Of a DNA stretch of 64,000 nt, positions 2,247-62,937 are shown in pieces (position 1 is the stretch's first letter; the number at the start of each line of letters is the position of its first letter). Source of the DNA: Escherichia phage HermannAdler_Bas98. The stretch lies in sequence record PQ850608.1. The stretch is one strand, 5' to 3'. The translations under genes and the position numbers were made by a program. Under the pieces are notes generated by a model. It saw only the letters and a program-made list of their open reading frames with translations. It was not told the DNA's origin and did no database searches.

Positions 2247-4622
2247 ATGAAAATTCTTGGCATAAAACTCTGGGAGAAGACGCAACCAGAAGCCGAACCA
2301 GCGGAGATGCCGCCAGGCGACCCATTGGCACCGTTTGAACGCCTTGAAAGGCGCGGCAGCGGTCAACGCTGGGAAAAGACTGAAAGCAATCGACCGACCT
2401 TTAAAACGGTTGATGACTTCCCTTTATATGAGCCTGATATTAATGGCGATGGTGTTGCAATCATAAAAGGTCGTTCAGTCGATTCCGCAACAGTATCCAA
2501 AAAGGTTATGGATAATGCCTTAAAGAACATCAGTTCAGAAGGGCAAGTCAACCCATACACAGTACCTATTCAACTTCAAAACTGGTATTTGTCACAGTCA
2601 TTCATCGGCTATCAAGCTTGTGCCATCATCGCACAGCATTGGCTGGTGAACAAGGCGTGTTCCATGGTAGGCCGCGATGCGGTCCGTAAAGGTTGGGAAG
2701 TCAAATCCAGTTCTGAGTCAGAATTGTCAGTACAGGCAAGCGAACGCCTAAAGCAAATTGATAAAGAATTTAATATCAAAGAGCACTTAGTTGAAGCCGA
2801 ACGATTCAAAAATATTTTTGGTATCCGCGTCATCATATTTGATGTGCGTAGCGATGACCCAGAATATTACAGCAAGCCTTTTAACATTGATGGCGTGACA
2901 AAGGGGTCTTATAAGGGAATCATTCAGGTTGACCCTTATTGGATGATGCCGTTTCTGACGTCTGAAAACACAGCAGACCCTGCATCACAGCACTTCTATG
3001 ACCCAGAATATTGGGTAATCAGCGGACAACGTTATCATCGCAGCCACCTCATAATCTTGCGCAACGATGAGCCAGCCGATATTCTCAAGCCGACTTATAT
3101 TTACGGCGGCATTCCTCTGACTCAGCAGATTTATGAACGCATCTATGCCGCTGAACGTACCGCCAACGAAGCGCCATTGCTGGCGATGTCCAAGCGTACA
3201 ACGACGCTGCGGACCGACGTTGACAAGGCTATTGCCAATGAGCGGTCTTTTGCAGAACGTCTGATGATGTGGATCAAGTACCGCGACAACTATGCAGTCA
3301 AAGTGCTTGGCCAAAAAGAAGAGATGGACCAGTTTGACATCAACTTGTCAGACTTCGACAGCATCATCATGAACCAGTACCAGCTGGTGGCCGCAATCGC
3401 AAAAGTTCCGTCGACAAAACTGTTAGGGACGTCACCTAAAGGCTTTAACGCCACTGGTGAGTTCGAGATGGTCAGCTATCACGAAGAATTGGAAACTTGT
3501 CAGCAGCACGATTTGACGAAGATTCTGGACCGTCACTATAAAATCCTTTTGAAATCTGAAGGTGTTGAAGTCGACGTTAAAGTGGCATGGGAGCCAGTTG
3601 GTTCACTTACTGCTACTCAGCTTGCAGAGATTAACGACAAACGAGCGAATACTGGTAAGACTCTCATTGATGCTGGCGTCATCTCCCCTGATGAAGAGCG
3701 CGACCGCATCAAGGACGACAAAAACAGCGGCTACAACCGTCTGCCGGAAGATGCAGCGGAAGAAACCCCAGGGATGTCTCCAGAGAACATGGCGTTGCTT
3801 GGCAAGTCTGCTGGTGAAGTGCTGCAAGGTAAGGCTGATATTGAACAGGCTAAGGCTGATGTTGTCAAGATGGGCGGCCAGTTCTATAGCGAGACTGGTA
3901 TCATGCCGGAAGGTGCCGCGCGCGGTGAGTTGGCAGAAAACCCTGACAGGGCACCAGTTGAGATTAACATGGATGATACCGATGACGAATCAAGCCATCA
4001 CGTTGATGTCCTAACGCAACTGAAAGAAGGTCTGGAGGGTATTGCTGACTATTACCTTAAAGAAGGTCAGGATGTGGATTTTGACCCTCAAAAAGATGCA
4101 AGGTCGGTGCAACCGTCTACGCTTCCAAGCGTAAAAGGAAATGTCGTAAACTTGCGACACAATGTAGGGAAGATGGATGCCGCATCGCTGCCTAAGATGA
4201 AGTTGCACGGGATGATTCTTGGTATTGAGAATCCTCGCAACAGCATTCGCAGGGGCAACAGCCTTGATGGTGAATGGGCAGTTAAGATGCCGCACCATTA
4301 CGGATTTATCAAAGGCACCAAGGGCGCTGATGGTGATGAAGTCGACTGCTTTGTTGGACCAAATATGAAGTCGCCTAAAGTATTCATCATTAACCAAAAT
4401 GATAATTATTCTGGCGAATTTGATGAACACAAGTGTATGCTTGGATTTGATTCAGCAGAAGAAGCGAAAGAAGCTTATCAGGCGTCATTTGGTAACGGTT
4501 GGAACGGATTTGACTCAATCCACGAATTGGATGTCAACTCATTCAAGGAGTGGTTGAAGGGTGATTGCTCTCAAGCATATGGAGCACTCAACAATCCTAC
4601 TAATTCACCGAAGCAAGGTTGA
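2247..4622 (+). CDS. Portal protein with extended C-terminal domain
   Basis: Large ORF directly after terminase; start refined to Met12 of track ORF behind RBS AGGTGG; about 790 aa is longer than typical portals, C-terminal roughly 180 aa looks like an extra domain. Confidence 0.7.
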   Translation: MKILGIKLWEKTQPEAEPAEMPPGDPLAPFERLERRGSGQRWEKTESNRPTFKTVDDFPLYEPDINGDGVAIIKGRSVDSATVSKKVMDNALKNISSEGQVNPYTVPIQLQNWYLSQSFIGYQACAIIAQHWLVNKACSMVGRDAVRKGWEVKSSSESELSVQASERLKQIDKEFNIKEHLVEAERFKNIFGIRVIIFDVRSDDPEYYSKPFNIDGVTKGSYKGIIQVDPYWMMPFLTSENTADPASQHFYDPEYWVISGQRYHRSHLIILRNDEPADILKPTYIYGGIPLTQQIYERIYAAERTANEAPLLAMSKRTTTLRTDVDKAIANERSFAERLMMWIKYRDNYAVKVLGQKEEMDQFDINLSDFDSIIMNQYQLVAAIAKVPSTKLLGTSPKGFNATGEFEMVSYHEELETCQQHDLTKILDRHYKILLKSEGVEVDVKVAWEPVGSLTATQLAEINDKRANTGKTLIDAGVISPDEERDRIKDDKNSGYNRLPEDAAEETPGMSPENMALLGKSAGEVLQGKADIEQAKADVVKMGGQFYSETGIMPEGAARGELAENPDRAPVEINMDDTDDESSHHVDVLTQLKEGLEGIADYYLKEGQDVDFDPQKDARSVQPSTLPSVKGNVVNLRHNVGKMDAASLPKMKLHGMILGIENPRNSIRRGNSLDGEWAVKMPHHYGFIKGTKGADGDEVDCFVGPNMKSPKVFIINQNDNYSGEFDEHKCMLGFDSAEEAKEAYQASFGNGWNGFDSIHELDVNSFKEWLKGDCSQAYGALNNPTNSPKQG

Positions 4623-4623
4623 T

Positions 4624-5475
4624 ATGGCTTTTAAAGCTTCGAAAAAACGTGAACGCCGCTTACCCGATAGAGTCGGGCGCGGCAGTCCGATAATCCCATC
4701 CAACGCAATCGCGATGGCCTATCGTCGTGAGATGAAAGGTCTTTGCTATGCGATGATTGACGACTATCAAGAAGGAATTGCTGAGTGGCTTGAAAAGAAG
4801 CAGGTAAAAAAATTCTTTGCGCAAGACTCTGCTGATTCAACTTTTCAAACCTTGATGAAGCGCCTTCAACTGAAATGGGCAAAAGCATTCGCCCGTGTCG
4901 GGTCAAAGATTGCCGCAGATTTCATCAAGTCAGTTGAAAAGGGCGCGACTTCTGCTACATTTGCAAGTCTTAAATCTGCAGGAATAGAAGCGCCAAAAGC
5001 CACATATAATAAATTCGTTGAGAACACTCTTAAAACAAGCGAGACGTTCAACACGACTTTAGTGACTAAGGTTGGCGAGGATATTCACAACAGGGTGTAC
5101 GAAGCGGTGATGCTTTCGCTGACTTCGCCAGACCCAGCGCAACAAGGCACGTCCGGCATTCAGGCGGCATTAAGGCATGTAAAACACTTCTCTGCAAAAC
5201 GCGTAGACCTTATCGCCAAAGACCAAACGAGCAAACTTTATTGCGTATTAAGTGATGAAAGAATGCGACAGAATGGCGTTGAGGAATTTGAGTGGGCGCA
5301 TTCAGGAGCAGGAAAAGAGCCGCGAATATCGCATGAGCATGTCGATGGGATGAGATTCAAGCTTGATGACAAACGCTTATGGGAAGTAGGTGGAGAACTT
5401 AAGTTCAAAAAGGGTGACATCGGTCCTCCTGGATGGGCGATACACTGCAAGTGCAGAAAAATACCAATTATCTGA
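4624..5475 (+). CDS. Head morphogenesis protein (Mu F / SPP1 gp7-like minor head protein)
   Basis: Position immediately after portal with 1-nt gap; size about 283 aa; family call by gene order and general sequence character. Confidence 0.55.
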   Translation: MAFKASKKRERRLPDRVGRGSPIIPSNAIAMAYRREMKGLCYAMIDDYQEGIAEWLEKKQVKKFFAQDSADSTFQTLMKRLQLKWAKAFARVGSKIAADFIKSVEKGATSATFASLKSAGIEAPKATYNKFVENTLKTSETFNTTLVTKVGEDIHNRVYEAVMLSLTSPDPAQQGTSGIQAALRHVKHFSAKRVDLIAKDQTSKLYCVLSDERMRQNGVEEFEWAHSGAGKEPRISHEHVDGMRFKLDDKRLWEVGGELKFKKGDIGPPGWAIHCKCRKIPII

Positions 5476-5482
5476 GGTCATT

Positions 5483-6403
5483 ATGACGATACCAATCAAC
5501 ACATTCCCTCTATCTGGACAAACTCCAGTCTTGCCTGCGGTGTATGCTAATGGCTTGGCAATTGTCTCAGAATTCACTTCTGATAAAAACTTGATTGTTC
5601 CACTGAGCCCGCCGCTTGCATCAGGGTATAACTCAGTAGGTCAATTCTTTATGATTGGAAATGATGGCGATTCGACCAGCAAGCCTAATCTGACATTGTC
5701 TGTACCTAAGATGGACATCACAGACGTTCAAACTGGCTTGACTGCATCAACAATCACCATTGCTTTTGGAGAAGCGGTGATTATAGGAATGGAGTCTGGA
5801 GGGTCCAAGAATGCTGTCGCCGTTAAGGTAGTCAAATCCATCGACAACCAATACACGTTACCAGCTGCGACGGCTTCCGTTCTCGGCGGCGTCAAAATAG
5901 GAAGCGGAATAAGCGTCGCAGGTGACGGTACAATTAGCGTCACCCAATACTCATTGCCGATTGCGTCAGCATCTACTTTAGGCGGCGTAAAGGTCGGTAC
6001 AACTCTATCAATTGATGGTTCCGGTGTGCTTAACGCAGCGGAAAGCACCGTCCAGAATGCCACGAACAGTGTTAGCAATCCTCCAACCACTTTGGTTAAT
6101 CTGGCGACCTTAAACCTTCCTGCAGGAAAGTGGCTTGTGACGGCAAGTCAGTTGACTGTCGCGACAGCAGGAATTCAAGCGAATACCGGAATTACATCCA
6201 AATTGTCAACAAGCGATTCAGATATTACGGATGATGCATTTACGATGTCAGCTGGCATTCGGGCTGCAGGTCGTTTCGGCGGCAATATTCCAACAAAGAT
6301 AATTACTCTTGCCGCTCCTGGCGATGTGTATCTAAACTATCAATGCACAGATGCGTTGACATCTACCGTTTACGGACAGATCACCGCAATCAAGCTGAAC
6401 TAA
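5483..6403 (+). CDS. Structural protein with Gly/Ser/Thr/Val-rich internal repeats
   Basis: Internal repeated segments (SVLGGVKIGSGISV / STLGGVKVGTTLSI); RBS GAGGT before ATG. Confidence 0.45.
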   Translation: MTIPINTFPLSGQTPVLPAVYANGLAIVSEFTSDKNLIVPLSPPLASGYNSVGQFFMIGNDGDSTSKPNLTLSVPKMDITDVQTGLTASTITIAFGEAVIIGMESGGSKNAVAVKVVKSIDNQYTLPAATASVLGGVKIGSGISVAGDGTISVTQYSLPIASASTLGGVKVGTTLSIDGSGVLNAAESTVQNATNSVSNPPTTLVNLATLNLPAGKWLVTASQLTVATAGIQANTGITSKLSTSDSDITDDAFTMSAGIRAAGRFGGNIPTKIITLAAPGDVYLNYQCTDALTSTVYGQITAIKLN

Positions 6404-6579
6404 AGAGGAAGTTATGCAAAAGATTATTCAGTCACGTTATGTTAAAGTGCGAAATATTAATTGCAACTCTTTGCTTTCTTGGAAATGGGCCGTTTACGAC
6501 TCGATGTTAATTGGCGTTTTAGTTGCAGGAGTGCTATTTAATATTCACTGAATTCATCGGCAAAGGATTGCCGCGAGTT

Positions 6580-6870
6580 TTATACGTATAATGACGTATC
6601 ATCCGTATCAAGTAAGTTATTGTTTTCAAAAGAATCTTACGGATGATACGGATGATACGCGTTGCCGCCGTACTATATAGGAATTCAAATAAATTAATTT
6701 AAAATTATATATCTAATTTAATTTTATTTTTTTATAAACTCTTATATATGAAAAGTATCCGTATCATCCGTATCATCCGTAGCACACCAGTGATAGCGCG
6801 GCTTATACACCGATACGGATAAAAATACGCCTCATTTTATCCGTATCATCCGTATCACACTAATAAAGGC
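6580..6870. repeat. Iteron array flanking AT-rich spacer (copy A of a duplicated element)
   Basis: Multiple direct and inverted copies of CCGTATCAT / GGATGATACGGATGATACG around an AT-rich core (AATTAATTTAAAATTATAT...TTTTTTT); homologous to 58900-59170. Confidence 0.7.
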
Positions 6871-6914
6871 GCGGCTATATTGGTTGTTATACATATTCAA
6901 ACCATAATTATTGT

Positions 6915-6943
6915 TTGCCTAAGTTTTTTTCATTAGATATAAT
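6915..6943 (+). promoter_or_regulatory. Sigma70-like promoter TTGCCT-N17-TATAAT upstream of scaffold/capsid genes
   Basis: -35 TTGCCT 6915-6920, 17-nt spacer, -10 TATAAT 6938-6943; RBS GAGGGTGG then ATG 6973. Confidence 0.6.
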
Positions 6944-6972
6944 ACACAATACTTATTTGAGGGTGGATGCGA

Positions 6973-8388
6973 ATGCAAACGGCACGCGAAATTGACAAAA
7001 ATGGATTCTTGACGATTATGGGTTGTCCAATTTCGTCATTTGGCATTTTTGATTATTCTGCTGGTCAAGTCGGTCTTGATGGTGATCCGAATCGCATCGT
7101 AAAAGTCTATCGCCCTGAGTCAGCGGTGAAAGACCCCGAAGCGATAGATTCATTCAAAAATATCCCTTTCATCGACAATCACGAAATGCTTTCTGGATTT
7201 GAAGGTGATGAGGATAACACAGCACCCGAAGAGTATGGAGTTGATGGCGTTCTGACTGGCAATGTTTATTATGACAAGCCATGGATGCGCGGCGACCTTA
7301 AAGTGTTTAGCCGTCGTCTGAAGAAGGCCATTGATTCTGGAAAGGTTGACTTGTCTTTGGGCTATGACTGTGAATTCATCATACAGTCTGGAGAGTTTGA
7401 CGGGCAGCCGTATGAAGTGGTGCAGACAACTCTTCGCGGCAACCACATTGCTCTCGTGGACGTTGGTCGAGTACCAGGTGCACGGGTGCTGGATGGTCGT
7501 TGCTTTGACCATCTTTGTTTGACGACTGTAACACCATCCAACGAGGATTTAGACATGCCAAAACCGTTAAAAGGTAAAGCGCGTGATAATGCTGTTGAAC
7601 AGCTGAAATCACTGATCCCTGCGCTCGAACAATTTCTGAACGAAGAGAGTACTGAAGCTGCTCATCAGGACGAAGTTGAAGTGAAAGCAGAAGAGAAGGA
7701 CTCAACCGAAAATCGTGAAGAAGTAATGGTTGATCCAGAAGTCAAGGCAGAAGCAGAAGAAACCCCAGAAGGTGAAGAGAAGTTTGAAGTTGAAACTGAA
7801 TCTCACGCTGGCGGCGAACTTCCGCAATTGATCAGCCAAATCGAAGCACTTATTGCAAAACTGAAAGGTGGCGCGGTAGGTGATGAAGAAGAAGTTGAAG
7901 CCGAAGTCAAAGACGAAGAAGAAGTTGAAGTCAAGGCTGAAGATGTATCACCTTGCGACAAAGCTGAAGATGTGGTTAGCGGCCTGCAAAACAGCAACGT
8001 AAAGGGGGCTTCGGTCGAAAAAGATGACAAACCGACAAAAGCGGCGAAAGCGTCGCCAGGTCCAGCAAAAGGGGAACACTCAATGGCATCTGATTCAGCA
8101 GTTGCTGCTTTCTACGCTGATTCTGCTCGTAAGAATAGCCTCTACCAGCGCCTGTCTAAAGTTGTTGGTGCCTTTGATCATGCAACTATGGACTCCAAGT
8201 CCGTAGCGAAATATGGCGCTAAAAAGTTAGGCTTGAAGTGCGTTGATGGTGCTGAGTTTGACGTGGTGGATAATTATCTGCGCGGCGTTGAGCACGGTCA
8301 AAAACAGCGTGTAGTCGCAAAACAAAAGGCCGCTGCGGATTCTGCAGCAACTGACGAAGCATTTGAAGCTTGGTTGAAAGGGGAATAA
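6973..8388 (+). CDS. Scaffold-like / prohead-associated protein with acidic Glu/Val/Lys-rich repeat region
   Basis: Globular N-terminal domain followed by low-complexity acidic repeats (EEVEAEVKDEEEVEVKAED); located just upstream of capsid genes. Confidence 0.5.
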   Translation: MQTAREIDKNGFLTIMGCPISSFGIFDYSAGQVGLDGDPNRIVKVYRPESAVKDPEAIDSFKNIPFIDNHEMLSGFEGDEDNTAPEEYGVDGVLTGNVYYDKPWMRGDLKVFSRRLKKAIDSGKVDLSLGYDCEFIIQSGEFDGQPYEVVQTTLRGNHIALVDVGRVPGARVLDGRCFDHLCLTTVTPSNEDLDMPKPLKGKARDNAVEQLKSLIPALEQFLNEESTEAAHQDEVEVKAEEKDSTENREEVMVDPEVKAEAEETPEGEEKFEVETESHAGGELPQLISQIEALIAKLKGGAVGDEEEVEAEVKDEEEVEVKAEDVSPCDKAEDVVSGLQNSNVKGASVEKDDKPTKAAKASPGPAKGEHSMASDSAVAAFYADSARKNSLYQRLSKVVGAFDHATMDSKSVAKYGAKKLGLKCVDGAEFDVVDNYLRGVEHGQKQRVVAKQKAAADSAATDEAFEAWLKGE

Positions 8389-8390
8389 AC

Positions 8391-9008
8391 ATGACTTTCC
8401 AAACTAGTGTAGGCCGTCAATATACAACTGGCTTTCCTGGCGACATCGTTCGCGACGGCCCACAGCGTGGGAAGCCAGGTCGAATCGTTAGCGCCAACGA
8501 TGGTGCAAACGTAAACGCCATCAGCCGTGTGTTCGGTTTTAAAGATGACGTATCTTTAATGGGTACTGGTCAAACCAAAACCTTGGGCGCGCAGGACTTT
8601 GAAGTTGAACTGGGCGGCACCAATTACTATGGCATCCTTGGCAACAGCAAGCGTTACGCTCTGTATGGCAACTCTACTGGTCCTTTGGGCGCCAGCATGG
8701 TTCTGCCTCAATATAGCGAAGGCGAGTTCTATGATATGTGCACGGGCCTCGTAGTTGAAGTATTCAACCCAAGCACCAGTCCGCAGACGCTGAACTACGG
8801 CGACCTGCTCGCTTATGTACCTAAAGGCATTTCCAGCGGTAACAACCCGAACAACTTGCCTATCGGTGCAATTATCGCCTACACTGGCTCACTGCCAACT
8901 GGCATGGTTGCCATTCCAGGCGGTATCGTGATTGACCCGACTGCTATTGCCCTTTCCGGCCCAAGCGTCCAGTCTTCCACTTATACCACTGTACAATTGA
9001 CTCGTTAA
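8391..9008 (+). CDS. Hypothetical head protein (possible decoration or minor capsid protein)
   Basis: ORF between scaffold-like gene and major capsid gene; start at Met8 of track ORF, abutting upstream stop. Confidence 0.45.
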   Translation: MTFQTSVGRQYTTGFPGDIVRDGPQRGKPGRIVSANDGANVNAISRVFGFKDDVSLMGTGQTKTLGAQDFEVELGGTNYYGILGNSKRYALYGNSTGPLGASMVLPQYSEGEFYDMCTGLVVEVFNPSTSPQTLNYGDLLAYVPKGISSGNNPNNLPIGAIIAYTGSLPTGMVAIPGGIVIDPTAIALSGPSVQSSTYTTVQLTR

Positions 9009-43917: not shown

Positions 43918-44763
43918 TTATTCCGCTTGATCACCGTCTTCGGCATCGTCGTTGGATTCAACATCGACAAACTCGATGTGGCCCATCTCTTCCAGCTTGC
44001 TCAGGTAGGAGCGAACGGAAGCGCCAAACAGCTGATCTTTAACTTTCTCGCCCAGCTCATCGATAGACTGCGCCACGCCAACTTCGCCTTCTTTGATCGC
44101 CGCCAGAACGCGCCCACGGGTGGAGTGCTCCTGCGGCTGGCTCAGGCCGTTGCCAGTGTAGATGAAGTGAGTAGCTTTTGCACGGCGCTGACCGTTTGCC
44201 TTTTTGGCAGCCTTGCGCTCTGCGATGGCTTTGCGACGTTCTTCAGCTTCTTTCTTACGCTGTTCTTTTTGCTGTTCTGCAGCTTCTTTCGCCGCGATCT
44301 TAGCAGCTTCACGCTCTGCCTTGCGTTTCGCTTTCGCTTCTTCTTTAGCCTTCTCTTTTTCGGCCTTTGCTGCAGCACGGGCTTGATCACGCTCTGCTTT
44401 CTTAGCAGCAGCTTGTTCAGCTTTCAGGCGCTTGGCTTCTTCTTTGGCCTTTGCCTTTTCGATTTCTTTTGCTGCTTTAGCGGCTTCACGCTCTGCTTTC
44501 TTAGCAGCAGCCTTTTCTGCACGCTCTTTAGCTTTCTTAGCTGCTTCTTCAGCACGCTTCTGAGCCTTCTCATCAGCAGCCTGTTTGCGCTTCAGCGCGG
44601 CTTCTTCACGCTTGGCTTGTTTTTCCTGCTCACGCTTCTGGCGTTTTTCTTCGGCTTCTTTCTTTTTAGCCAGGCGTTTTTCTTCAGCCACGCGACGACG
44701 TTCTGCTGCGGCTGCTTGTTTTTCTTCTTTAGATAATACTTTGATTGCTTCGGCCATATTCAC
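43918..44763 (-). CDS. Lys/Glu/Ala-rich repeat protein with globular C-terminal domain
   Basis: About 200 aa of KEA-rich low-complexity helix-like repeats (AEEKRLAKKKEAEEKRQK...), then an ordered domain with acidic tail; underlying DNA has tandem repeats. Confidence 0.55.
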   Translation of the reverse strand: MNMAEAIKVLSKEEKQAAAAERRRVAEEKRLAKKKEAEEKRQKREQEKQAKREEAALKRKQAADEKAQKRAEEAAKKAKERAEKAAAKKAEREAAKAAKEIEKAKAKEEAKRLKAEQAAAKKAERDQARAAAKAEKEKAKEEAKAKRKAEREAAKIAAKEAAEQQKEQRKKEAEERRKAIAERKAAKKANGQRRAKATHFIYTGNGLSQPQEHSTRGRVLAAIKEGEVGVAQSIDELGEKVKDQLFGASVRSYLSKLEEMGHIEFVDVESNDDAEDGDQAE

Positions 44764-44916
44764 AGTCCTTAAATAAATTAGTTTATTTTATATTCCCCGT
44801 TTGGGATAACTTAATTATGCCTTCAGTCGCCGCCAGTAGCAACTAAAAACTATGGCGGCAATGCCACTTTAATTAAACTGATTTTCAGTTTTATTTTTCG
44901 TAAATTTACGTCAACA

Positions 44917-46587: not shown

Positions 46588-47670
46588 ATGGCTAGTTTAA
46601 GAGAAGAAGCAAAAATAATCGAAGAGTTTTTGACGGAACTCCAAAGAGGCATTCCAGAAGACGAACGCGTCATGACCGTGTTTGCGCCTGAAGCGACAGT
46701 GCAGACTGACGAGCGCGGCAAGAAGATCAACAGCAGCTTCTGGCCTAAGCCTTGGAAGTTGGGCAAGTCGCTCATGCAGCACCAAAACGGCTATGCGTGC
46801 ATCAGTTCAATGCGTAAGTCTCCCAACCCAAAGACGGGTGAGATGCGATACTGGCGTACAGAGTCGGCCTTTGGTCACGGCATGGCGATGATGGTCGACG
46901 ACATCGGTCACGGTAAAGGGTCCAAAGGCGATTTAGATTTGGAATTCTTTTTTGAGCGACTGAAGCCGACTGTCATCGTCGAGACTTCACCGAACAACCA
47001 CCAGCTTTGGTACTTCTTTAAAGAACCGATTGACCATCTTATTCAGTTCAAAGCGTTCCTTGGGTCTTTCGTTAACATGGTACTCAAGAAGGGCGGCGAC
47101 AACACGATTAAAGACGTAACGCGCGTGGGCCGTGTTCCTGGGTGCATCAACAACAAGCGTGTGACTCACGACGGCCCCTATAAATATGTCGATGAGAACG
47201 GCGACCCGTTCCGCTGCCGACTTGTCCATGCAGACTACTCATTGCGCTACACCATCGAAGACATTTGTCAGGCATTTGGCTTTCACGTCGTCATGCCGCA
47301 AAAGCGTGAGATTCAAATTGACGTCGATGAATACAAGTATGATGCTGTTTGGTATAAAATAGCCCAGCAGATTCTATCGCGCAACAAAATGGGTGAAGGG
47401 TCTGATGGCGACGTCATCGAGAACATGTCAGGCAAGTGCCGCATAATCTGTCCTTGGGGTGAAGAACACACCAACGGCGACCCGTATGGCGCTTACTTTC
47501 GCGGCCCTATTCCTGGTGCAGAACATGAGTTTGTGTTCGGTTGCGCCCACGACTGTCACCGGAAAGGGGAAGGCAAGAAAGGTTGGACTGCTTTTGTTGA
47601 AGCAATCGTCATGCCTTATATTGAGAATCAACTTGACATGATAAATCGTCGTGCAGGTGGCATAAAATAG
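46588..47670 (+). CDS. Primase-like protein (archaeo-eukaryotic primase-type suspected) with C-terminal Cys/His cluster
   Basis: Acidic DxD-type motif MMVDDIGHG, SPNNHQLWY block, C-terminal CPWGEEH...CAHDCH metal-binding cluster; adjacent to VirE-like P-loop protein. Confidence 0.45.
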   Translation: MASLREEAKIIEEFLTELQRGIPEDERVMTVFAPEATVQTDERGKKINSSFWPKPWKLGKSLMQHQNGYACISSMRKSPNPKTGEMRYWRTESAFGHGMAMMVDDIGHGKGSKGDLDLEFFFERLKPTVIVETSPNNHQLWYFFKEPIDHLIQFKAFLGSFVNMVLKKGGDNTIKDVTRVGRVPGCINNKRVTHDGPYKYVDENGDPFRCRLVHADYSLRYTIEDICQAFGFHVVMPQKREIQIDVDEYKYDAVWYKIAQQILSRNKMGEGSDGDVIENMSGKCRIICPWGEEHTNGDPYGAYFRGPIPGAEHEFVFGCAHDCHRKGEGKKGWTAFVEAIVMPYIENQLDMINRRAGGIK

Positions 47671-48843: not shown

Positions 48844-48979
48844 TAGTTCACCAGTTATATTGCTTTAAATTGAGTTTTACTATATTAATATACAACGCCA
48901 GATTTCTGGCGTTTATTTACCGCACCCTGAAAGGATATATCCATGCAACAATATAACAAAGCCGTATCAGGAGGATTAA

Positions 48980-50650
48980 ATGTCAATTAATAATGACAAT
49001 CTTCCAGAGGATACAGGTGATGAATTTGGTGCAATCTTTGACGAAATTCAAGATGCAGGCGTTTCGGAAGAAATGCAGGCAGCAGAGCAGCAAGGCACCA
49101 GAGCTAAAATCAGCCTTCAACACAAAGCCGTTGAAAAAGATTCAGAGCGCATGGAATGCTACGGTGAAGAAGACTTGGTTGAAAGAGCACGCTTGCTCGC
49201 CTCACTTCAGGTAATCAAGTTCCCTCACTACAAGCCTACCAAAGATGACTTCGTTCTACAGGCAGACCGGACGAGTGACATGAACCGTTATGCGGTTTTC
49301 GACGCGTTGTTTGATAAGGGAAGTGGCGTTGTTCCATTCCCTCACAAAGATACTTTTCGTGGGCGCTTAGTCGACCATCGCGGCGAAACTTTCACCGACC
49401 GGACGTTGGAAGTCACAGAGATAGTTGCCGCTGTCGACGCAGCAGGTCTGTCCAACCCAAACTCACGTCAGGTAGCTCAATCCTATAAGGAATGGGCTAT
49501 GCGTTATCAGCGTGACGACCTGATGGACTTCTTCTACAAGAAGCTGCCTGAATGGGACGGTACTGCGCGCATTGAGAAATACCTTATCGAGCTATTCCGA
49601 CCGTTCGATACAGAGTTAAACCGACAAATCGGTGTGTATTTTTGGCTATCGCTCTACAACCGACTGACCAACCCTGGCTGTCAAGCGCCAATCTCCATCG
49701 CGCTCATCGGCGGCCAGAACGCAGGGAAGAGTTATTTTAGCAAGCTACTTTGCGAAGCTATTATGAACGACCGCCACGCAACACCGATTCCGTTGAACTT
49801 AGCCGCGCAGAACTTCAACCCGTTCTTGCGAGCTATTACGGGTCGCTCAATTATCGCGAACGTCGGCGAGATGACAGGCTTTAAAAAGGCCGACATCGAA
49901 AACATGAAAGCATTCCTGACTAAGACGGAAGATGACCTGGACTTCAAATTTGAAGATACTCAGGTTAAACCACGCCAGTGGATTGCTATCATGGACGGCA
50001 ACGAATACGCAGGCATGCAGCGTGATGACACGGGCAACCGTCGTGTGTATCCTATCTTTGTTGGCCAACTCGCTGACAAGGACGGGCAACCGAACTGGTC
50101 GAAAGATTTCCAAGCTGACCTTTCCACTTTGAAAGAAGACGTTTGGCAGTTGATGGCTGAGTGCGCTGCATGGATGGAGAAGCACGGCGAAGCAGGCTAT
50201 AACGCGTTTGTTGGTGAAACATCTCGCATGCTTACTGAGTTCAGTAAAAACGAAATGGAACGTGCACGCGGCGTTATTCGTGATGAGATGGTTGACAACG
50301 ACCTTGTTGAAGTCGTCATCACCGCGCCTTATGACCGACATCACAGCGGACGCTGGCACATCACCAGTGGTGCTATTGCTATGGGATTCAGAGCGAAGTG
50401 CGGCAAGTCGCCTTTCTCTCGTACCCTTGCGCCGCACATGTCGAAGCTTGGTTTTGAGCCTGCGACCTATCGCAACCAGCGCGGTTACTTTACGCCGCTG
50501 ATTAAGAATGAAGCAGGGGAATACATTTCCGACTTGATGACCATCTTAGCGTATCTTATCCGTGATGAGTCTGACCCTGAAGATATTGAATTCTTGAAGA
50601 AGGTTATCGAGCGTAAACGTTCTTTGGGAAGAGATAAGGATGAATTCTGA
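48980..50650 (+). CDS. VirE-like / primase-associated P-loop NTPase (putative replicative helicase)
   Basis: Walker A IGGQNAGKS; 556 aa; RBS AGGAGG; adjacency to primase-like gene. Confidence 0.55.
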   Translation: MSINNDNLPEDTGDEFGAIFDEIQDAGVSEEMQAAEQQGTRAKISLQHKAVEKDSERMECYGEEDLVERARLLASLQVIKFPHYKPTKDDFVLQADRTSDMNRYAVFDALFDKGSGVVPFPHKDTFRGRLVDHRGETFTDRTLEVTEIVAAVDAAGLSNPNSRQVAQSYKEWAMRYQRDDLMDFFYKKLPEWDGTARIEKYLIELFRPFDTELNRQIGVYFWLSLYNRLTNPGCQAPISIALIGGQNAGKSYFSKLLCEAIMNDRHATPIPLNLAAQNFNPFLRAITGRSIIANVGEMTGFKKADIENMKAFLTKTEDDLDFKFEDTQVKPRQWIAIMDGNEYAGMQRDDTGNRRVYPIFVGQLADKDGQPNWSKDFQADLSTLKEDVWQLMAECAAWMEKHGEAGYNAFVGETSRMLTEFSKNEMERARGVIRDEMVDNDLVEVVITAPYDRHHSGRWHITSGAIAMGFRAKCGKSPFSRTLAPHMSKLGFEPATYRNQRGYFTPLIKNEAGEYISDLMTILAYLIRDESDPEDIEFLKKVIERKRSLGRDKDEF

Positions 50651-51297
50651 TGAATAAAGCAATCAACATCGCTAAATTCTTTCAACATCTTGGTGAACTG
50701 AACAAAGAAAGTGACGTTCACGGCGAAGAAATGAACCGGATGATCTCAACCGTGTTGCGTGGCTTTGGTTATGATAAGGACTCAATCACTTGCAAGCGTA
50801 CAAAGCTTGTTGATGAGTCTTATCTTTACTACGTAGAGCTGCGCATCGGGAAAGATGTGATGATCATTGACCCTAAACTGGAAGGGGCGCACTGTTTTGG
50901 CGCTCACCCTCGTGCGAGTGAATTCAAGGGGCGCGGTCGCAACCGAATCCAGAAGCTTGATGACGCAGGCGACTTGAACATTGCAATGTTCCTTAAAGAG
51001 TTCCTTGCGCTACCGAAGGTTGCATCATCCACTGGCCGTGATGACCCTTGCAAGATTGGATTCAGAACTAAAGATTTGCGCAATGCGCTACGCAAGAAGG
51101 GATTTGTGCCTTCTTATGACAACGTCGCCGCGCTGATGGCTTCAATGGAGGAAGCTGAAGCAATGGATAAAGTGCGCGGCTATTTCCTGAATACAGGCTT
51201 CACCATGTATGAATGGCACACGAAGGGATTGACTGTCGCCGACTTCATCTATTCATTAGAGCAGAAGTATGTACGCAATATGCAGGCCACAGGATAA
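50650..51297 (+). CDS. Hypothetical protein
   Basis: 215-aa ORF, ATGA overlap with upstream gene. Confidence 0.45.
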   Translation: MNKAINIAKFFQHLGELNKESDVHGEEMNRMISTVLRGFGYDKDSITCKRTKLVDESYLYYVELRIGKDVMIIDPKLEGAHCFGAHPRASEFKGRGRNRIQKLDDAGDLNIAMFLKEFLALPKVASSTGRDDPCKIGFRTKDLRNALRKKGFVPSYDNVAALMASMEEAEAMDKVRGYFLNTGFTMYEWHTKGLTVADFIYSLEQKYVRNMQATG

Positions 51298-58422: not shown

Positions 58423-58899
58423 GCCTGTGTAATGGGAGGCTTTTGTGGTTATTTACGATTCAAGGCTGTAATTTAAGAGAGCGAAAATATTATAATAATT
58501 TATCAAGATTATTGCATATTGTGGCAATCAACGTTTATACGTATTTATGACAGTTTAATCCACTAAATAATACGGATAGAACAGTGAGGAAAATACAGCG
58601 GTGTATTTTAGTGTAAATATTGAATCAAAAATAAATAATTATGGTGCTATTATATACGCAGATTGTTTGTAATTTATAGGATATTTTATCGTGGAGTATT
58701 GGCTAACGGTGCGTTAGCCGTGGGTCTTGGTGCTTGTGGTGTTGATGCTCAGAATTTTAATAATGTTTTTAGTTTTAGTAATCGTAGTCAATGATGATAC
58801 GTATAAGAAAATGAGAGTCACCCCTTCACAGGATATTGTACCGTGGCCCTGTGGTGCGCCGCGCCTGGGATTGCTGGTATACACTGGTGCTATTTTGCC

Positions 58900-59170
58900 G
58901 CGAAGGCAGTCATTCATACGTATCATGACGTATCATTGGGCTATTGATTTATAAGGAAAAATACGCTGATACGGATGATACGGGTGCAAACATAATATAT
59001 ATAGAATTCCAGAAAATTAATTAACTCCATTTTGAATTAATTTAAATTAATTTTTTTCTACATCCTCATACTTATACTAAACTTATATTCATACGTATCA
59101 TCCGTAAGATATAAGTAAAAACAAGGACTTGCGGCAATACGGATGATACGTCATGATACGCTTCGACCAG
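58900..59170. repeat. Iteron array flanking AT-rich spacer (copy B of a duplicated element)
   Basis: ACGTATCATGACGTATCAT, GATACGGATGATACG, CAATACGGATGATACGTCATGATACG around AT-rich core (AATTAATTAACTCCATTTTGAATTAATTTAAATTAATTTTTTT); collinear with 6580-6870. Confidence 0.7.
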
Positions 59171-59364
59171 CCAGCAGCGGCTAAGTCATTGATTTGCATA
59201 GCAAGCGGCGAAAGGGATGGATTTCTTTTATACGTATCAAACAGTACACCACGCACCACGGTCCGCAATCCTATTTGCAATATGATTTGTGTACGTTTAT
59301 AGCCATAATGAACATCAATCTGCACTTGAATATAATGTCCATCCATTGTATAATTCACACTATT

Positions 59365-60575
59365 AATTTGCACTATGGGATTTTGCACTATGAGTCAAGA
59401 TTATGTAGCGATGCCTGAAGACTTTGAAGACCCGCGATTCGCAGAGCACAATCAGGCTTTATTCGATGAGTTCATTGACCTTGTTATTCAGGGTCATGAC
59501 ATGCGCGCAGCTTTTGCACTAGTATTTGGAATGGAAGTTGCAACGGATAACTACACTGGCCAGCGAATCCTTTGCACGCAACGCAATCCATACTACAAGA
59601 TGCGCTTCAAAAAGCGTATGGAAGAGATGCCACTCAAGGATTTGTGGAGCGTAAAAGGTGCAATTCACAATTTGGTCAAGCTTGTGCGTGATCCAGAAGT
59701 CGCGGCGTCAGCCAAGCTTAATGCTATTCGTGAACTGAATATCATCTACGGCATCACGATGATTGATGAAAACGGCAATAGTAAAATGGGCCGTTCTATG
59801 GACGATTTCTACAAGGATTTTGGAGAGGCTGCCAAAGAAGGAGAGCAATTCTCCCGCCACTAGCCAATTTGCACTATAAAACGGCCCTAGAACACATGTT
59901 CTCCACTTCTAGGGCCATCGGTAATACGACGGGGAAGGTCGCACCCATAAACGCGTTAGAAAGTGTATTATTATAAGTCATCTTTTAGTCGCTTTACGTA
60001 ACAATTTACGACCTTCAACCGTCCAATCGAACGACTCCACCAGCAGATTCGCACTATAACCTAAGACGATGCGCCCTTTCTCGTTATCGACCCGCCAACA
60101 AGTCTCGAATAGCATTCGATTTGCACTATTAACTATTGCCGCAACGCGCGTAGGGTAAGCGCAATTTGCACTATGGTCGTAAAGGGATAAGGTGCGACCA
60201 CTTCCGATGGACAATGTAGCGATGAGAATAAGCGTATTCATAAGCCACCAATTTGCACTATGAAAAGCGACCCCGAAGGGCCGCCATTCGATTAGATAAT
60301 CTGGAAGGTGTAGGACTTGTTGCCGAACTCGAAGTTCAAGCGTCCAGCTTCTTTAAGCTTCATGCGGAAGCGAATGTGCTTGCTATCCGGTAATCCCAGC
60401 GCGGCGAAGGCTACGCGGACCGATTTGAACTCGCCTACACCCTCGACCATAACGCCGTTACGGGTGAGACGCTTTTGCGCCACTTCCTTATTATCCCAAC
60501 TTTTTGCAATACCTTCGCTATTCGAACGGCGATGGGAAGGAGTTCCATTTTGCACTACGCAATTTGCACTATCGT
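59365..60575 (+). repeat. Dispersed cluster of 11-bp motif ATTTGCACTAT (at least 8 copies, same orientation)
   Basis: Copies read near 59365, 59381, 59867, 60046 (ATTCGCACTAT variant), 60120, 60166, 60251, 60547 and 60559; several lie inside predicted minus-strand ORFs. Confidence 0.6.
59390..59863 (+). CDS. Hypothetical protein
   Basis: 157 aa from Met6 of track ORF; start codon overlaps an ATTTGCACTAT motif copy. Confidence 0.45.
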   Translation: MSQDYVAMPEDFEDPRFAEHNQALFDEFIDLVIQGHDMRAAFALVFGMEVATDNYTGQRILCTQRNPYYKMRFKKRMEEMPLKDLWSVKGAIHNLVKLVRDPEVAASAKLNAIRELNIIYGITMIDENGNSKMGRSMDDFYKDFGEAAKEGEQFSRH

Positions 60576-60918
60576 TTAAGCCGCTCTTAACGAAGGCTTC
60601 ATACTCTTCATCGCTCATCGCGTCGAGTTCTTCCTGGGTCGGCTCAGCCTTTTTAACGACCGCACGCGCCTTATGCGTTTTTACATCACTGGACACTTCC
60701 TCACGCGGCTTCGCGTCGGGAATGGGCGATTCGTTGGACGGCTCATCGAGCGCGTTTAAGGACTCGATTAACGCGATTACGCGAGTCTCGGCGGTCCGGC
60801 GGTCCGCAAATTTCTTAATCGGCTTCGAACCGGAATTTGCATTATAAAATGCAACGAGGTCGGCGGTCTTAGTTGCGATAACGTCGCCGCTAGTAGAAAA
60901 GCGATTTAAGCTAACCAT
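60292..60918 (-). CDS. Hypothetical protein
   Basis: 208-aa ORF in CpG-rich terminal segment; contains two motif copies on the opposite strand. Confidence 0.4.
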   Translation of the reverse strand: MVSLNRFSTSGDVIATKTADLVAFYNANSGSKPIKKFADRRTAETRVIALIESLNALDEPSNESPIPDAKPREEVSSDVKTHKARAVVKKAEPTQEELDAMSDEEYEAFVKSGLNDSANCVVQNGTPSHRRSNSEGIAKSWDNKEVAQKRLTRNGVMVEGVGEFKSVRVAFAALGLPDSKHIRFRMKLKEAGRLNFEFGNKSYTFQII

Positions 60919-60998
60919 AATAAACTCCTATTTGTTAGGGCGCTAGGCGCGAAAGAATTTTATTAAAGCGCCGCGCACGACGCTCTAAAAATCCTCTC

Positions 60999-61313
60999 TT
61001 ACTCTTCGTCGTCTTCGATTAATTCGAGGGCGAAGGCGTAAGCTTTGCTATCGTAATTAACTAAAACGGCGAGTTCGAACTCGTTAATAAACGCCGTTTT
61101 ACCGCATAAATTTAATTCCGCATCGACTTCGAAGAATCCGTTTTCGTCGCGCTCTAAGCGAGAAGCAGCGAGTTGCTCGATTACCGTCGCGTCGTTAATT
61201 TCTTCGCCTAAGCGAACGCCGGAGAATTTCGCGAGAATTTCGCCGTAAGTAAGCGTAACGCCCTGGACTTCGGCGGCGGCGTTTTCGAGGGTAAAGCGGG
61301 TAACGATAGCCAT
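60999..61313 (-). CDS. Small acidic hypothetical protein
   Basis: 104 aa, acidic with C-terminal EDDEE; good coding character. Confidence 0.45.
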   Translation of the reverse strand: MAIVTRFTLENAAAEVQGVTLTYGEILAKFSGVRLGEEINDATVIEQLAASRLERDENGFFEVDAELNLCGKTAFINEFELAVLVNYDSKAYAFALELIEDDEE

Positions 61314-61537
61314 AATAAACTCCTAGTTGGGAGAGGCGTTAACGACCTATTCGTTAACTCATCCCGTCCCGATATGAGTACATTATAATATAGTGTAGAA
61401 AAAAGTAAAGCACTTTTTCGATAAAAATGCGATAAATTATTTTATCTTTTTTCTTTACTTCTTCGTACACTCGCGTATACTTGTTTATATCGAGACGGGC
61501 GATGGCCCTTTCTTCTACTAGCATCGGGAGCTTTATT

Positions 61538-61840
61538 ATGACTACTTTAATCTCTTCCATCCTTACTTACGACGAAGACCGCTTAACCGTTCGCTCTCTT
61601 ATCGCCGCCGTTAACGCGGAACTAGAATCTAGCGCCATTAAGGTCCGCGCGGTCGCCTTCATCGGCCTTTCCTTCGACGATATGAAGTATGCCGAACGTA
61701 GCGCCATCCGCTTCGCGAAGACCGACGACGAAGCCGTTACCCTTATCGAGACGGTTACGCCGCGCGGCGAAGCGTTAATTATCGTCGAGTATATCGACGT
61801 AGAAGGCGATAAATCTTATAAACATTTTATCGCAGAATAA
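61538..61840 (+). CDS. Small acidic hypothetical protein
   Basis: About 100 aa from Met20 of track ORF; preceded by shared promoter-like element. Confidence 0.4.
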   Translation: MTTLISSILTYDEDRLTVRSLIAAVNAELESSAIKVRAVAFIGLSFDDMKYAERSAIRFAKTDDEAVTLIETVTPRGEALIIVEYIDVEGDKSYKHFIAE

Positions 61841-61852
61841 CGAAAAAAGTGC

Positions 61853-61881
61853 TTTACTTCTTCGTACACTAAGACTATAAT
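61853..61881 (+). promoter_or_regulatory. Sigma70-like promoter TTTACT-N17-TATAAT containing shared element CTTTACTTCTTCGTACACT
   Basis: -35 TTTACT 61853-61858, -10 TATAAT 61876-61881; the 19-nt element also occurs at 61452-61470 upstream of 61538 gene. Confidence 0.5.
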
Positions 61882-61948
61882 GTTTTATATCGAGAGGGGA
61901 TGAGGTAGCGAATAGGTCACTACCCTCCCGACTAACTAGGAGAATATT

Positions 61949-62239
61949 ATGATTACTTTAGCCGCTATCCGTTCCGCTCGCGTCGAAACTTCCGAAAACT
62001 CTAACGTATTTGGCGAAAAACTTAAAAACGTTTATCTCTTTAACGTAGATGCGACTATCGAGGAGCTTCACAGTCCTATCGATTTTAGCGAATTTACGGA
62101 ACTCGAAGAGGAAGATATTTCTACCTTCCGCGTTACTATCGAAGGCAAGGTTTATTTTGCTACGGAGTTCGGCGGCGAATATCTCGCGGTATCCGAAGGC
62201 GAAGGCCGTTACTCTTTCTTTAAAATCGTTTCCTTATAA
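61949..62239 (+). CDS. Small acidic hypothetical protein
   Basis: 96 aa, Glu-rich; RBS AGGAG before ATG; followed by terminator. Confidence 0.45.
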   Translation: MITLAAIRSARVETSENSNVFGEKLKNVYLFNVDATIEELHSPIDFSEFTELEEEDISTFRVTIEGKVYFATEFGGEYLAVSEGEGRYSFFKIVSL

Positions 62240-62257
62240 TACCCTTCCGTTACTAAT

Positions 62258-62286
62258 AGGCCGCGCTTAGTCGCGGCTTTTCTTCG
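62258..62286 (+). terminator. Rho-independent terminator
   Basis: GGCCGCGCTTAGTCGCGGC hairpin then TTTTCTT. Confidence 0.6.
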
Positions 62287-62937
62287 TCCCTATCTCGATG
62301 CGCTCCTACGCGAAAACTCCTTTATCCTTCCCTTCGTCGTCGCATAATCTTCTTCGAGATGCGTCTTAGTTCGCATAACAGGTATTACGTTAAATGGAGA
62401 ACATCGCGTAAGTCCTTGTTTTATATAGACACCTATATCGGACCGTTAGGGCGGGTCGCGTAAGTCGTTGTTTTATAAAGGCACAAAACTTTCCCTTCGT
62501 TCCGAACTAAAACGAGAAATATGCCGACCCTTCGCCCGAAAATAGTACGTATGCGAAATTACATTCATCTCGAATAATCCCTCCCGATATTATCCTACAC
62601 GCAATCATTCGCTTTCGAATCATTATGCTTCATATTATTATGCGTCGAATCATTCGCTTTCGAATTGTAACGCTGGAAACTGTAACGTCGATTGATTATT
62701 GCGTTCGTGTGGTTTTTATGGCATGGGTCTTTTGGTGCGTTTTGCTACTTGATGGAATTTGCGGTACACTAATCAAAATACGACACATTTGGTCCACTAA
62801 CTTTTCAAAGAAAAAGTCCTAGACAGTACCGTACTATTTTGTACCCACAGGAAATTTGCAGTACACTCCTGAGCGGCAGGCAAAATAAAGGGCCGCACTA
62901 AGCGACCCACGATTCACGGTTAAATCAGCAACACCCA

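Follow-up and report, generated by a model that had tools for sequence, protein, structure and literature searches.

Why should a block of phage head genes hold an array of short repeats around a very AT-rich core? The question is raised by an intergenic stretch (6552-6966, 415 bp) of Escherichia phage HermannAdler_Bas98 (PQ850608.1), of which 64,000 nucleotides, referred to here as the window, were analysed. The window is the genome of a Wifcevirus, an Escherichia coli myophage. The array (copy A, ~6583-6857) has a twin (copy B) upstream of the small terminase-like gene terS. From sequence comparison, the balance tips slightly towards copy A being an origin-type element bound by a Rep protein and one of two paralogous cis-elements in the PB1-like myophages.

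Architecture and conservation of the repeat element

The first-pass annotation had described direct and inverted repeats around a very AT-rich core, followed by a sigma70-like promoter, and both parts of this description were borne out. The motif CCGTATCAT was found five times in 64 kb against 0.31 expected, a number reached in none of 100 shuffles, and four of the five copies lie within 6643-6849. Its core CGTATCA occurs 23 times in the window, with eight occurrences in 6595-6857, nine in 58795-59233 and six scattered. In copy A the iterons are present on the + strand at 6595, 6604, 6757-6783 and 6839-6857 and on the - strand at 6638-6659 and 6812-6820. A perfect 22-nt inverted repeat (6638-6659 and 6760-6781) leaves 100 nt between its arms, and this interval has a GC content of ~19-20% and contains the most AT-rich 80 nt of the window (72 of 80). 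The right outer iterons, together with the sequence through GCGCGGCT, form a 38-nt direct repeat of 6766-6803. The individual modules are listed in Table 1.

The element lies between two predicted transcription signals. On its left side, a terminator-like hairpin is predicted to end the upstream transcription unit, and the GGCAA/TTGCC stem of this hairpin is retained in the other Wifcevirus subclade. On its right side, the sigma70-like promoter (TTGCCT-17-TATAAT) is located 24 nt before the ATG at 6967 and is invariant in Wifcevirus. Promoter counterparts were read by eye at the same place in Pseudomonas phage LS1 (TTTACC-17-TATAATACA) and Serratia phage SMP (TTGCTC-17-TATAATACA).

A (G/T)CGCGGC(T/A)-type motif was also seen 3' of the right-hand iterons on the + strand (6794-6803 and 6867-6878, and likewise 59128-59136 and 59174-59182), and PB1, LS1, SMP, MTx and the related contigs L190-L192 have comparable GCGGC(A/T) motifs downstream of their elements. 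The short GCGGC(A/T) motif supports no claim because it is too common in the window (90 matches).

Copy B is located inside a ~1-kb non-coding stretch upstream of the gene annotated as small terminase in phage Mansfield. The two copies share one order of modules, namely an outer iteron pair, an inverted pair, TATATAG(G)AATTC, the AT-rich core, direct iterons and an inverted iteron. Among all 80-nt windows of the 64 kb, the one in the copy B core ranks second in AT content.

Copy A is under purifying selection. Among six Wifcevirus genomes covering both subclades, 6 of 289 columns were variable in 6680-6966, compared with 10 variable sites among the 46 third codon positions of the neighbouring open reading frame (ORF) (Fisher p = 4e-6). 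Only 1 of 78 columns was variable in the AT-rich core, and the right inner iterons were invariant. Across 28 related records, the intergenic stretch showed 96-99% identity where the surrounding 3 kb showed ~94%.

The element had first been called unexpected in a head-gene block, and its absence from syntenic relatives had been named among the observations that would speak against it. Neither holds, since the element is present in Wifcevirus relatives, and Pbunavirus and Myosmarvirus have it in the same syntenic place. In Serratia phage SMP (Myosmarvirus) and in two Pbunavirus members, Pseudomonas phages LS1 and PB1, a small ORF is separated from the protease gene by a gap of 470-510 bp, and these gaps contain short direct and inverted repeats around an AT-rich core, the repeat sequence being specific to each lineage. 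The element is therefore a conserved feature of the PB1-like group and no oddity of one phage. A copy B is likewise found in SMP and PB1, upstream of a terS-like gene and again with the motifs of their own lineage, so that copies A and B carry the lineage's own motif in Wifcevirus, PB1 and SMP. Because the iterons of A and B change together in each lineage, a single trans-acting protein co-evolving with both sites is indicated.

A perfect 22-nt inverted repeat enclosing 100 nt would also suit an insertion of the miniature inverted-repeat transposable element type with 22-nt terminal repeats, a cruciform, or a small RNA gene. The strand does fold far better than its shuffles (z = -6.9), a value that is uninformative because it follows trivially from the inverted repeat. 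However, the inverted repeat does not contain all of the iterons, each genome has only two copies, and the same position and architecture are found in three genera, which a recent insertion would not show. The Rfam scan of 6300-7100 gave a chance-level match only (MIR4208, 22.8 bits against a threshold of 140 bits, E 0.66). All three readings are highly improbable, and they were rejected on the cross-genus synteny of an element whose sequence is lineage-specific.

The candidate initiator and the origin-type reading

The window encodes a candidate for the trans-acting protein, a 556-aa VapE-like SF3 helicase (Pfam VapE-like_dom, 1.6e-28). Its sole sequence match in the PDB was 7PDS (E 4e-11), the Rep protein of the staphylococcal pathogenicity island (SaPI) SaPI1. 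The AlphaFold2 model of this Rep homologue (38 homologues) has a predicted local distance difference test score of 85.8, and its C-terminus is winged-helix-like, with two helices and a beta-hairpin (H463-474, H480-489, E493-497 and E500-504). The best Foldseek match of the model was 7PDS as well (E 2.8e-16, ~480 aligned columns, template modelling score 0.61 on the target), followed by NrS-1 and poxvirus D5/E5 helicases. A search of IMG/VR for the rep locus with this single protein returned Wifcevirus contigs only.

The C-terminal domain (441-556) is the least conserved part of the protein, with 54% identity in the homologue P0002 of the L190 lineage and 12-31% in other relatives, compared with 84% and 53-67%, respectively, for the ATPase core. 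In its wing sequence, YRNQRGYFTP, the window protein does not differ from P0002, whose lineage has retained the iteron core of the window.

SaPI Reps are self-loading helicase-initiators whose C-terminal winged helix binds iterons, and SaPI origins consist of 6-12 iterons just downstream of rep, with a central AT-rich region and at least two opposed iterons on each side (PMC9371898). The origin-type reading of copy A is supported because copy A matches this layout, with at least two opposed iterons on either side of its AT-rich centre, because the divergence of the Rep C-terminus tracks the divergence of the iterons, and because in PB1, Serratia phage MTx and SMP the gap that immediately follows the rep homologue on its 3' side contains copy B, which is the canonical SaPI position. 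The initiator type is also alike, the window protein being the predicted counterpart of an SF3 helicase whose C-terminal winged helix varies in specificity between elements. The origin or protein-binding array proposed in the first-pass annotation is accordingly the best-supported reading, resting on the SaPI-like layout, the Rep homologue and the conservation. That the iterons are bound by Rep rather than by another protein, and that binding leads to replication initiation, is what we infer from these.

The likeness to SaPI and to phage-inducible chromosomal islands in general has clear bounds. The host of the element here is a 68-kb virulent myophage and not a satellite island, and each genome has the element twice. 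Copy A is located within the head-gene block, neither copy is immediately downstream of rep in the window, and one copy coincides with a terminal-repeat boundary. The iterons are ~9 bp long (core 7-8) and tandem at 9-bp spacing, in contrast to SaPI iterons of 5-6 nt.

In the proposed mechanism, the SF3 helicase would bind the CGTATCA(T) iterons via its C-terminal winged helix, and the opposed iteron sets would place two helicase assemblies on the flanks of the ~85-bp, 80-90% AT core. The core would then melt, and the RepB-type primase, a likely partner of the helicase, would begin DNA synthesis together with the phage polymerase. Copy A would sit in a transcription-free pocket that extends from the terminator to the protease promoter. 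Copy B has the same modules and, in addition, the site at which the left genome end is formed.

Two other systems were compared with the element. Phage P4 has two such sites, ori and crr, which are bound by the alpha primase-helicase, an SF3-type protein with a C-terminal winged-helix origin-binding domain. Like these, copies A and B are two separated clusters of one short repeat in direct and inverted orientation, whereas P4 alpha belongs to the D5_N/Pox_D5-type branch and the window Rep is VapE-like. The origins of iteron plasmids and of the lambda type likewise have an iteron array adjoining an AT-rich unwinding region. Unlike them, the element has opposed iterons on both sides of the AT-rich region and not on one side, and the proposed initiator is the helicase itself. 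In 6552-6966, the consensus scan gave zero perfect matches to the DnaA box TTATNCACA and three matches with one mismatch, and the scan of copy A for the integration host factor consensus gave no perfect site.

CGTATCA arrays were also found outside Wifcevirus. IMG/VR was scanned by exact pattern for tandem CGTATCA units, and six independent non-coding clusters were obtained, four of which sit at a primase-helicase gene, either at its 3' end or directly downstream (Table 1). The four contigs bearing these arrays are unrelated, with GC contents from 0.47 to 0.70. The association indicates the usual setting of such arrays, and it is supportive and not decisive because iteron arrays near rep genes are common generally. 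In the MAFFT comparison, the C-terminal domain of Rep could not be aligned with those of the unrelated CGTATCA-associated primase-helicases, and there is accordingly no basis for claiming that they share a recognition motif.

Several points weigh against an origin. Copy A is ~42 kb from rep and copy B ~8 kb downstream of it in the window, so copy A does not adjoin the initiator gene. The AT-rich core is conserved in sequence and beyond its AT content, and simple melting needs no such conservation. GC skew and cumulative skew over the whole window track gene orientation and give no origin signal. The turnover of the iterons would track any co-evolving DNA-binding protein, the arrays seen beside rep genes in other contigs may reflect a generic link that is not motif-specific, and the genome end inside copy B would fit a packaging role equally well. 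No replication, marker-frequency or binding data for these phages were found in the literature. When the Wifcevirus and Pbunavirus literature was searched for origins, none was described in the papers found, which report only "AT-rich boxes" of unclear function and predicted promoters.

One of those predictions bears directly on the core, since the equivalent core of PB1-like phages has been predicted as a sigma70 promoter 5' of ORF22 (PMC3008698). The core could accordingly be or contain a promoter or UP-like element, with the iterons as operators for a phage regulator that times the operon of protease, scaffold and capsid genes, and from copy B this regulator would set the timing of terS and of the genes in the terminal repeat. 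Such control would fit the position of copy A, with a terminator on one side and the conserved protease-gene promoter on the other. Both copies precede rightward genes with sigma70-like promoters, and the near-invariant core would suit a sequence-specific signal. Extra non-sigma70 promoter motifs, which probably need phage factors, have been reported in phage 14-1 (PMC10914365). However, a separate, well-formed promoter that is conserved across genera already exists downstream of the iterons, the consensus scan inside the Wifcevirus array gave only weak 9/12 matches, and no candidate regulator was identified. An arrangement of at least eight sites, its two opposed sets separated by a 100-nt spacer, is unusual for an operator and typical of origins, and the genome end in the core of copy B would be left unexplained. 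Transcriptional control is therefore regarded as an unlikely function of the array.

The origin-type element itself is of a type already known from SaPI and P4. What appears to be new is its presence in virulent myophages of 66-72 kb, its duplication with one copy in the head-gene block, and the coincidence of the other copy with a long terminal-repeat boundary in two genera. PB1-like myophages (Pbunavirus, Wifcevirus and Myosmarvirus) are in wide therapeutic and biocontrol use, and wifceviruses are reported to replicate exceptionally fast (PMC11990801). The analysis provides precise candidates, namely two cis-elements, a candidate initiator and a lineage-specific iteron "code", and the 415-bp intergenic stretch should not be assumed to be dispensable in phage engineering.

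Two minor observations concern the rep locus. A near-iteron with one mismatch (AGCCGTATC, 48960-48968) lies 12 nt upstream of the rep start codon and could serve autoregulation, although matches with one mismatch are frequent by chance (~10.6 expected in the window). A 215-aa ORF (50650-51297) without a Pfam match has an ATGA overlap with the end of rep. Syntenic counterparts of this ORF are present in L190, L191 and L192, whereas none follows rep in PB1 and MTx, and it could encode a Rep accessory protein or an alternative DNA-binding candidate.

Among the IMG/VR contigs, two that are related to each other and otherwise unrelated (L121:449-695 and L127:5039-5283, 46 and 43 kb) have three CGTATCA(C) iterons and three inverted iterons, with an AT-rich centre between them. 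In both, this element is 300-450 bp from the contig end, so that the architecture is again near a sequence end.

The packaged genome end in copy B

The suggestion in the first-pass annotation that termini might fall at the element was confirmed for the twin. Five records (WFC, SP13, Ro157lw, WFH and Mansfield) share one start nucleotide, at ATTTT(A/G)AA, which follows TTAATTAACTCC inside the core of copy B and corresponds to 59028|59029 of the window. The ends of Ro157lw and Mansfield were determined by PhageTerm, and the record ends come from at least three independent groups. WFC and WFH have a terminal repeat of ~3.7 kb, and by homology with the five records the packaged genome would carry a direct terminal repeat of 3785 bp (59029-62813). 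No iteron element is found at the right boundary, 62813|62814 (ACTTTTCAAAGAAA|AAGTCC). For MTx, PhageTerm likewise places the repeat boundary inside the element, 368 bp beyond the stop codon of rep and 376 bp ahead of the terS-like gene.

Given the genome end in copy B, the iterons could alternatively be small-terminase binding sites around a cleavage region, with copy B active and producing the left end and copy A serving as a second binding or synapsis site or as a silent pseudo-pac. In P1 pac and in pacL-pacC-pacR of SPP1, terminase sites flank a cleavage region, and T4 gp16 synapsis offers a further comparison. The common start of five records directly upstream of terS, the boundary inside the copy B equivalent of MTx, and the short repeats on both sides of the cut all match this known pac anatomy. 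Copy A does not share it. At the aligned position copy A lacks the junction AACTCC|ATTTTGA, which copy B and the nearest sister lineage (in its own copy B) share, and among the deposited records it shows no sign of cleavage, since not one of the 28 related ones begins in it. If a genome with exact terminal repeats had a second full cut site 15.9 kb from its end, truncated genomes would result, and these phages have terminal repeats that are long and exact, in contrast to headful packaging. The terS-like protein is evenly conserved (67, 50, 50, 31 and 38% identity), and its N-terminal part is common to lineages with completely different iterons, whereas the Rep C-terminal domain is hypervariable; this last argument is a weak one. 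A terminase element is on these grounds considered improbable.

The origin-type reading can be extended to the genome end itself. In this extension, which is put forward as a speculative proposal, an origin firing at the terminal-repeat boundary would make the long direct terminal repeat and define the genome end. Rep-driven initiation in the core of copy B at each concatemer junction would duplicate the 3.8-kb repeat, the melted or forked core would serve as the cleavage substrate from which the exact left end arises, and copy A would be a second origin or a Rep-bridged partner site, like P4 crr. The location of the twin at an exact genome end in two genera connects origin-like architecture to the formation of long terminal repeats. 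If the proposal is true, replication initiation and genome-end formation would be joined in one cis-element, and a mechanism would be offered for long terminal-repeat duplication, which the literature calls unknown.

Further observations were made near the genome ends. Two 29-nt direct repeats (TCGCGTAAGTC(C/G)TTGTTTTATA...) and a 28-nt imperfect inverted repeat (62404-62484 and 62350-62577) are found 240-460 bp before the right terminal-repeat boundary and may signal the cut at the right end. Next to the right end of WFC stands the 11-mer ACTAACTTTTC, which is also present 13 nt inside the left end of MTx. Between copy B and terS (59260-59375), sigma70-like hexamers were read by eye (for example TTGCAA...TATGAT and CTTGAA...TATAAT...TATAAT), and repeated TGCACTAT motifs stand directly before the start codon that follows, recurring in L190.

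A metagenomic Wifcevirus contig of 68,520 bp (IMGVR_UViG_3300045988_152943, L023 / L043) has both ends inside the left iterons of copy A (~6601-6634). This is probably an assembly break at the repeats rather than a physical end.

Gene map and neighbouring features

All 28 matches to 5400-8400 are Wifcevirus members or group with the genus. In this region, the identity was 98.5% with vB_Eco4M-7 and vB_Eco4M-7n, 98.4% with HansTraber_Bas100 (Bas100), 97.4% with vB_EcoM_WFC, and ~94% with the subclade of WFH, FEC19, ECML-117 and Mansfield. The coordinates of the window agree with Bas100, whose record begins at the large terminase gene. The features discussed above are collected in Table 1.

Table 1. 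Features of the window, arrays in unrelated viral contigs and iterons of the compared lineages
Feature	Position	Strand	Sequence, basis or remark
Structural genes	1-28.5 kb	+	
Replication genes	28.5-46 kb	-	
Early genes	46-58.5 kb	+	
Terminal repeat in relatives	after early genes (beyond 58.5 kb)		
45-aa ORF, hydrophobic C-terminus	6414..6551	+	annotated in Bas100 and Mansfield; ribosome-binding site AGAGGAAG
Terminator-like hairpin, then T-run	6558..6583 (hairpin 6558-6573)	+	CGGCAAAGGATTGCCG; consensus scan
Left outer iterons	6583..6610	+	ACGTATAAT GACGTATCAT CCGTATCA; copy B counterpart ATACGTATCATGACGTATCAT at 58916-58936
Left inner iterons, inverted	6638..6659	-	TACGGATGATACGGATGATACG; left arm of the perfect 22-nt inverted repeat
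AT-rich core, candidate unwinding region	6672..6756	.	starts TATATAGGAATTC; GC ~0.19-0.20
Right inner iterons, three tandem 9-bp units	6757..6783	+	ATCCGTATC ATCCGTATC ATCCGTAGC; include the right inverted-repeat arm
Single inverted iteron	6812..6820	-	GATACGGAT; aligns with copy B AATACGGATGATACG
Right outer iterons, two tandem units	6839..6857	+	
Sigma70-like promoter	6915..6943	+	TTGCCT-17-TATAAT; consensus scan; for protease, scaffold and capsid genes
RepB-type primase, 360 aa, likely helicase partner	46588..47670	+	Pfam RepB_primase 2.2e-36; syntenic in relatives
VapE-like SF3 helicase, 556 aa, candidate iteron-binding initiator	48980..50650	+	SaPI1 Rep homologue
Copy B, twin element upstream of terS	58916..59160	.	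AT-rich core ~58990-59090; same module order as copy A
Array in L021	2192-2610		neighbour gene PriCT_2 + AAA_25; some iterons inside the gene, encoding DDTPDDTDDT
Array in L035	2725-3000		neighbour gene D5_N + DUF5906 + Pox_D5
Array in L046	3296-3450		neighbour gene D5_N + DUF5906 + Pox_D5
Array in L146 (= L159)	3619-4012		neighbour gene D5_N + DUF5906 + Pox_D5
Iteron, Wifcevirus (window)			CGTATCA(T)
Iteron, L190 (closest relative; Rep 75% identical)			ACGTATCA, same core retained
Iteron, L191			TATCCGCAAGA, 9 copies
Iteron, L192			ATCCGC(C/A)
Iteron, SMP (Myosmarvirus)			TTACTTTTCGTTTTT / AAAAACGAAAAGTAA; also given as TTACTTTTCG
Iteron, LS1 / PB1 (Pbunavirus)			CAAATTACC / GGTAATTTG

The gap around copy A had been described as 560 bp of non-coding DNA in front of a scaffold-like gene. 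Its first 138 nt hold the 45-aa ORF, which is a real gene because its variation among six Wifcevirus genomes concentrates at third codon positions (10 of 12 variable sites), and small ORFs are found at the equivalent position in SMP and in LS1/PB1. Since this conserved ORF is coding, the non-coding part of the gap is reduced to the 415 bp given above. The downstream gene is annotated in Bas100 and Mansfield as the head maturation protease.

The motif scan also returned repeats in the contigs L079, L129, L087 and L132 and at 44.2-44.8 kb of the window, which were set aside as all of them are coding. The region 44200-44800 has the top local repeat score of the window. Its source is coding repeats of ~99 nt in a gene on the - strand, unrelated to the iterons, and the homologous region of Serratia phage SMP has the highest repeat score of that genome.

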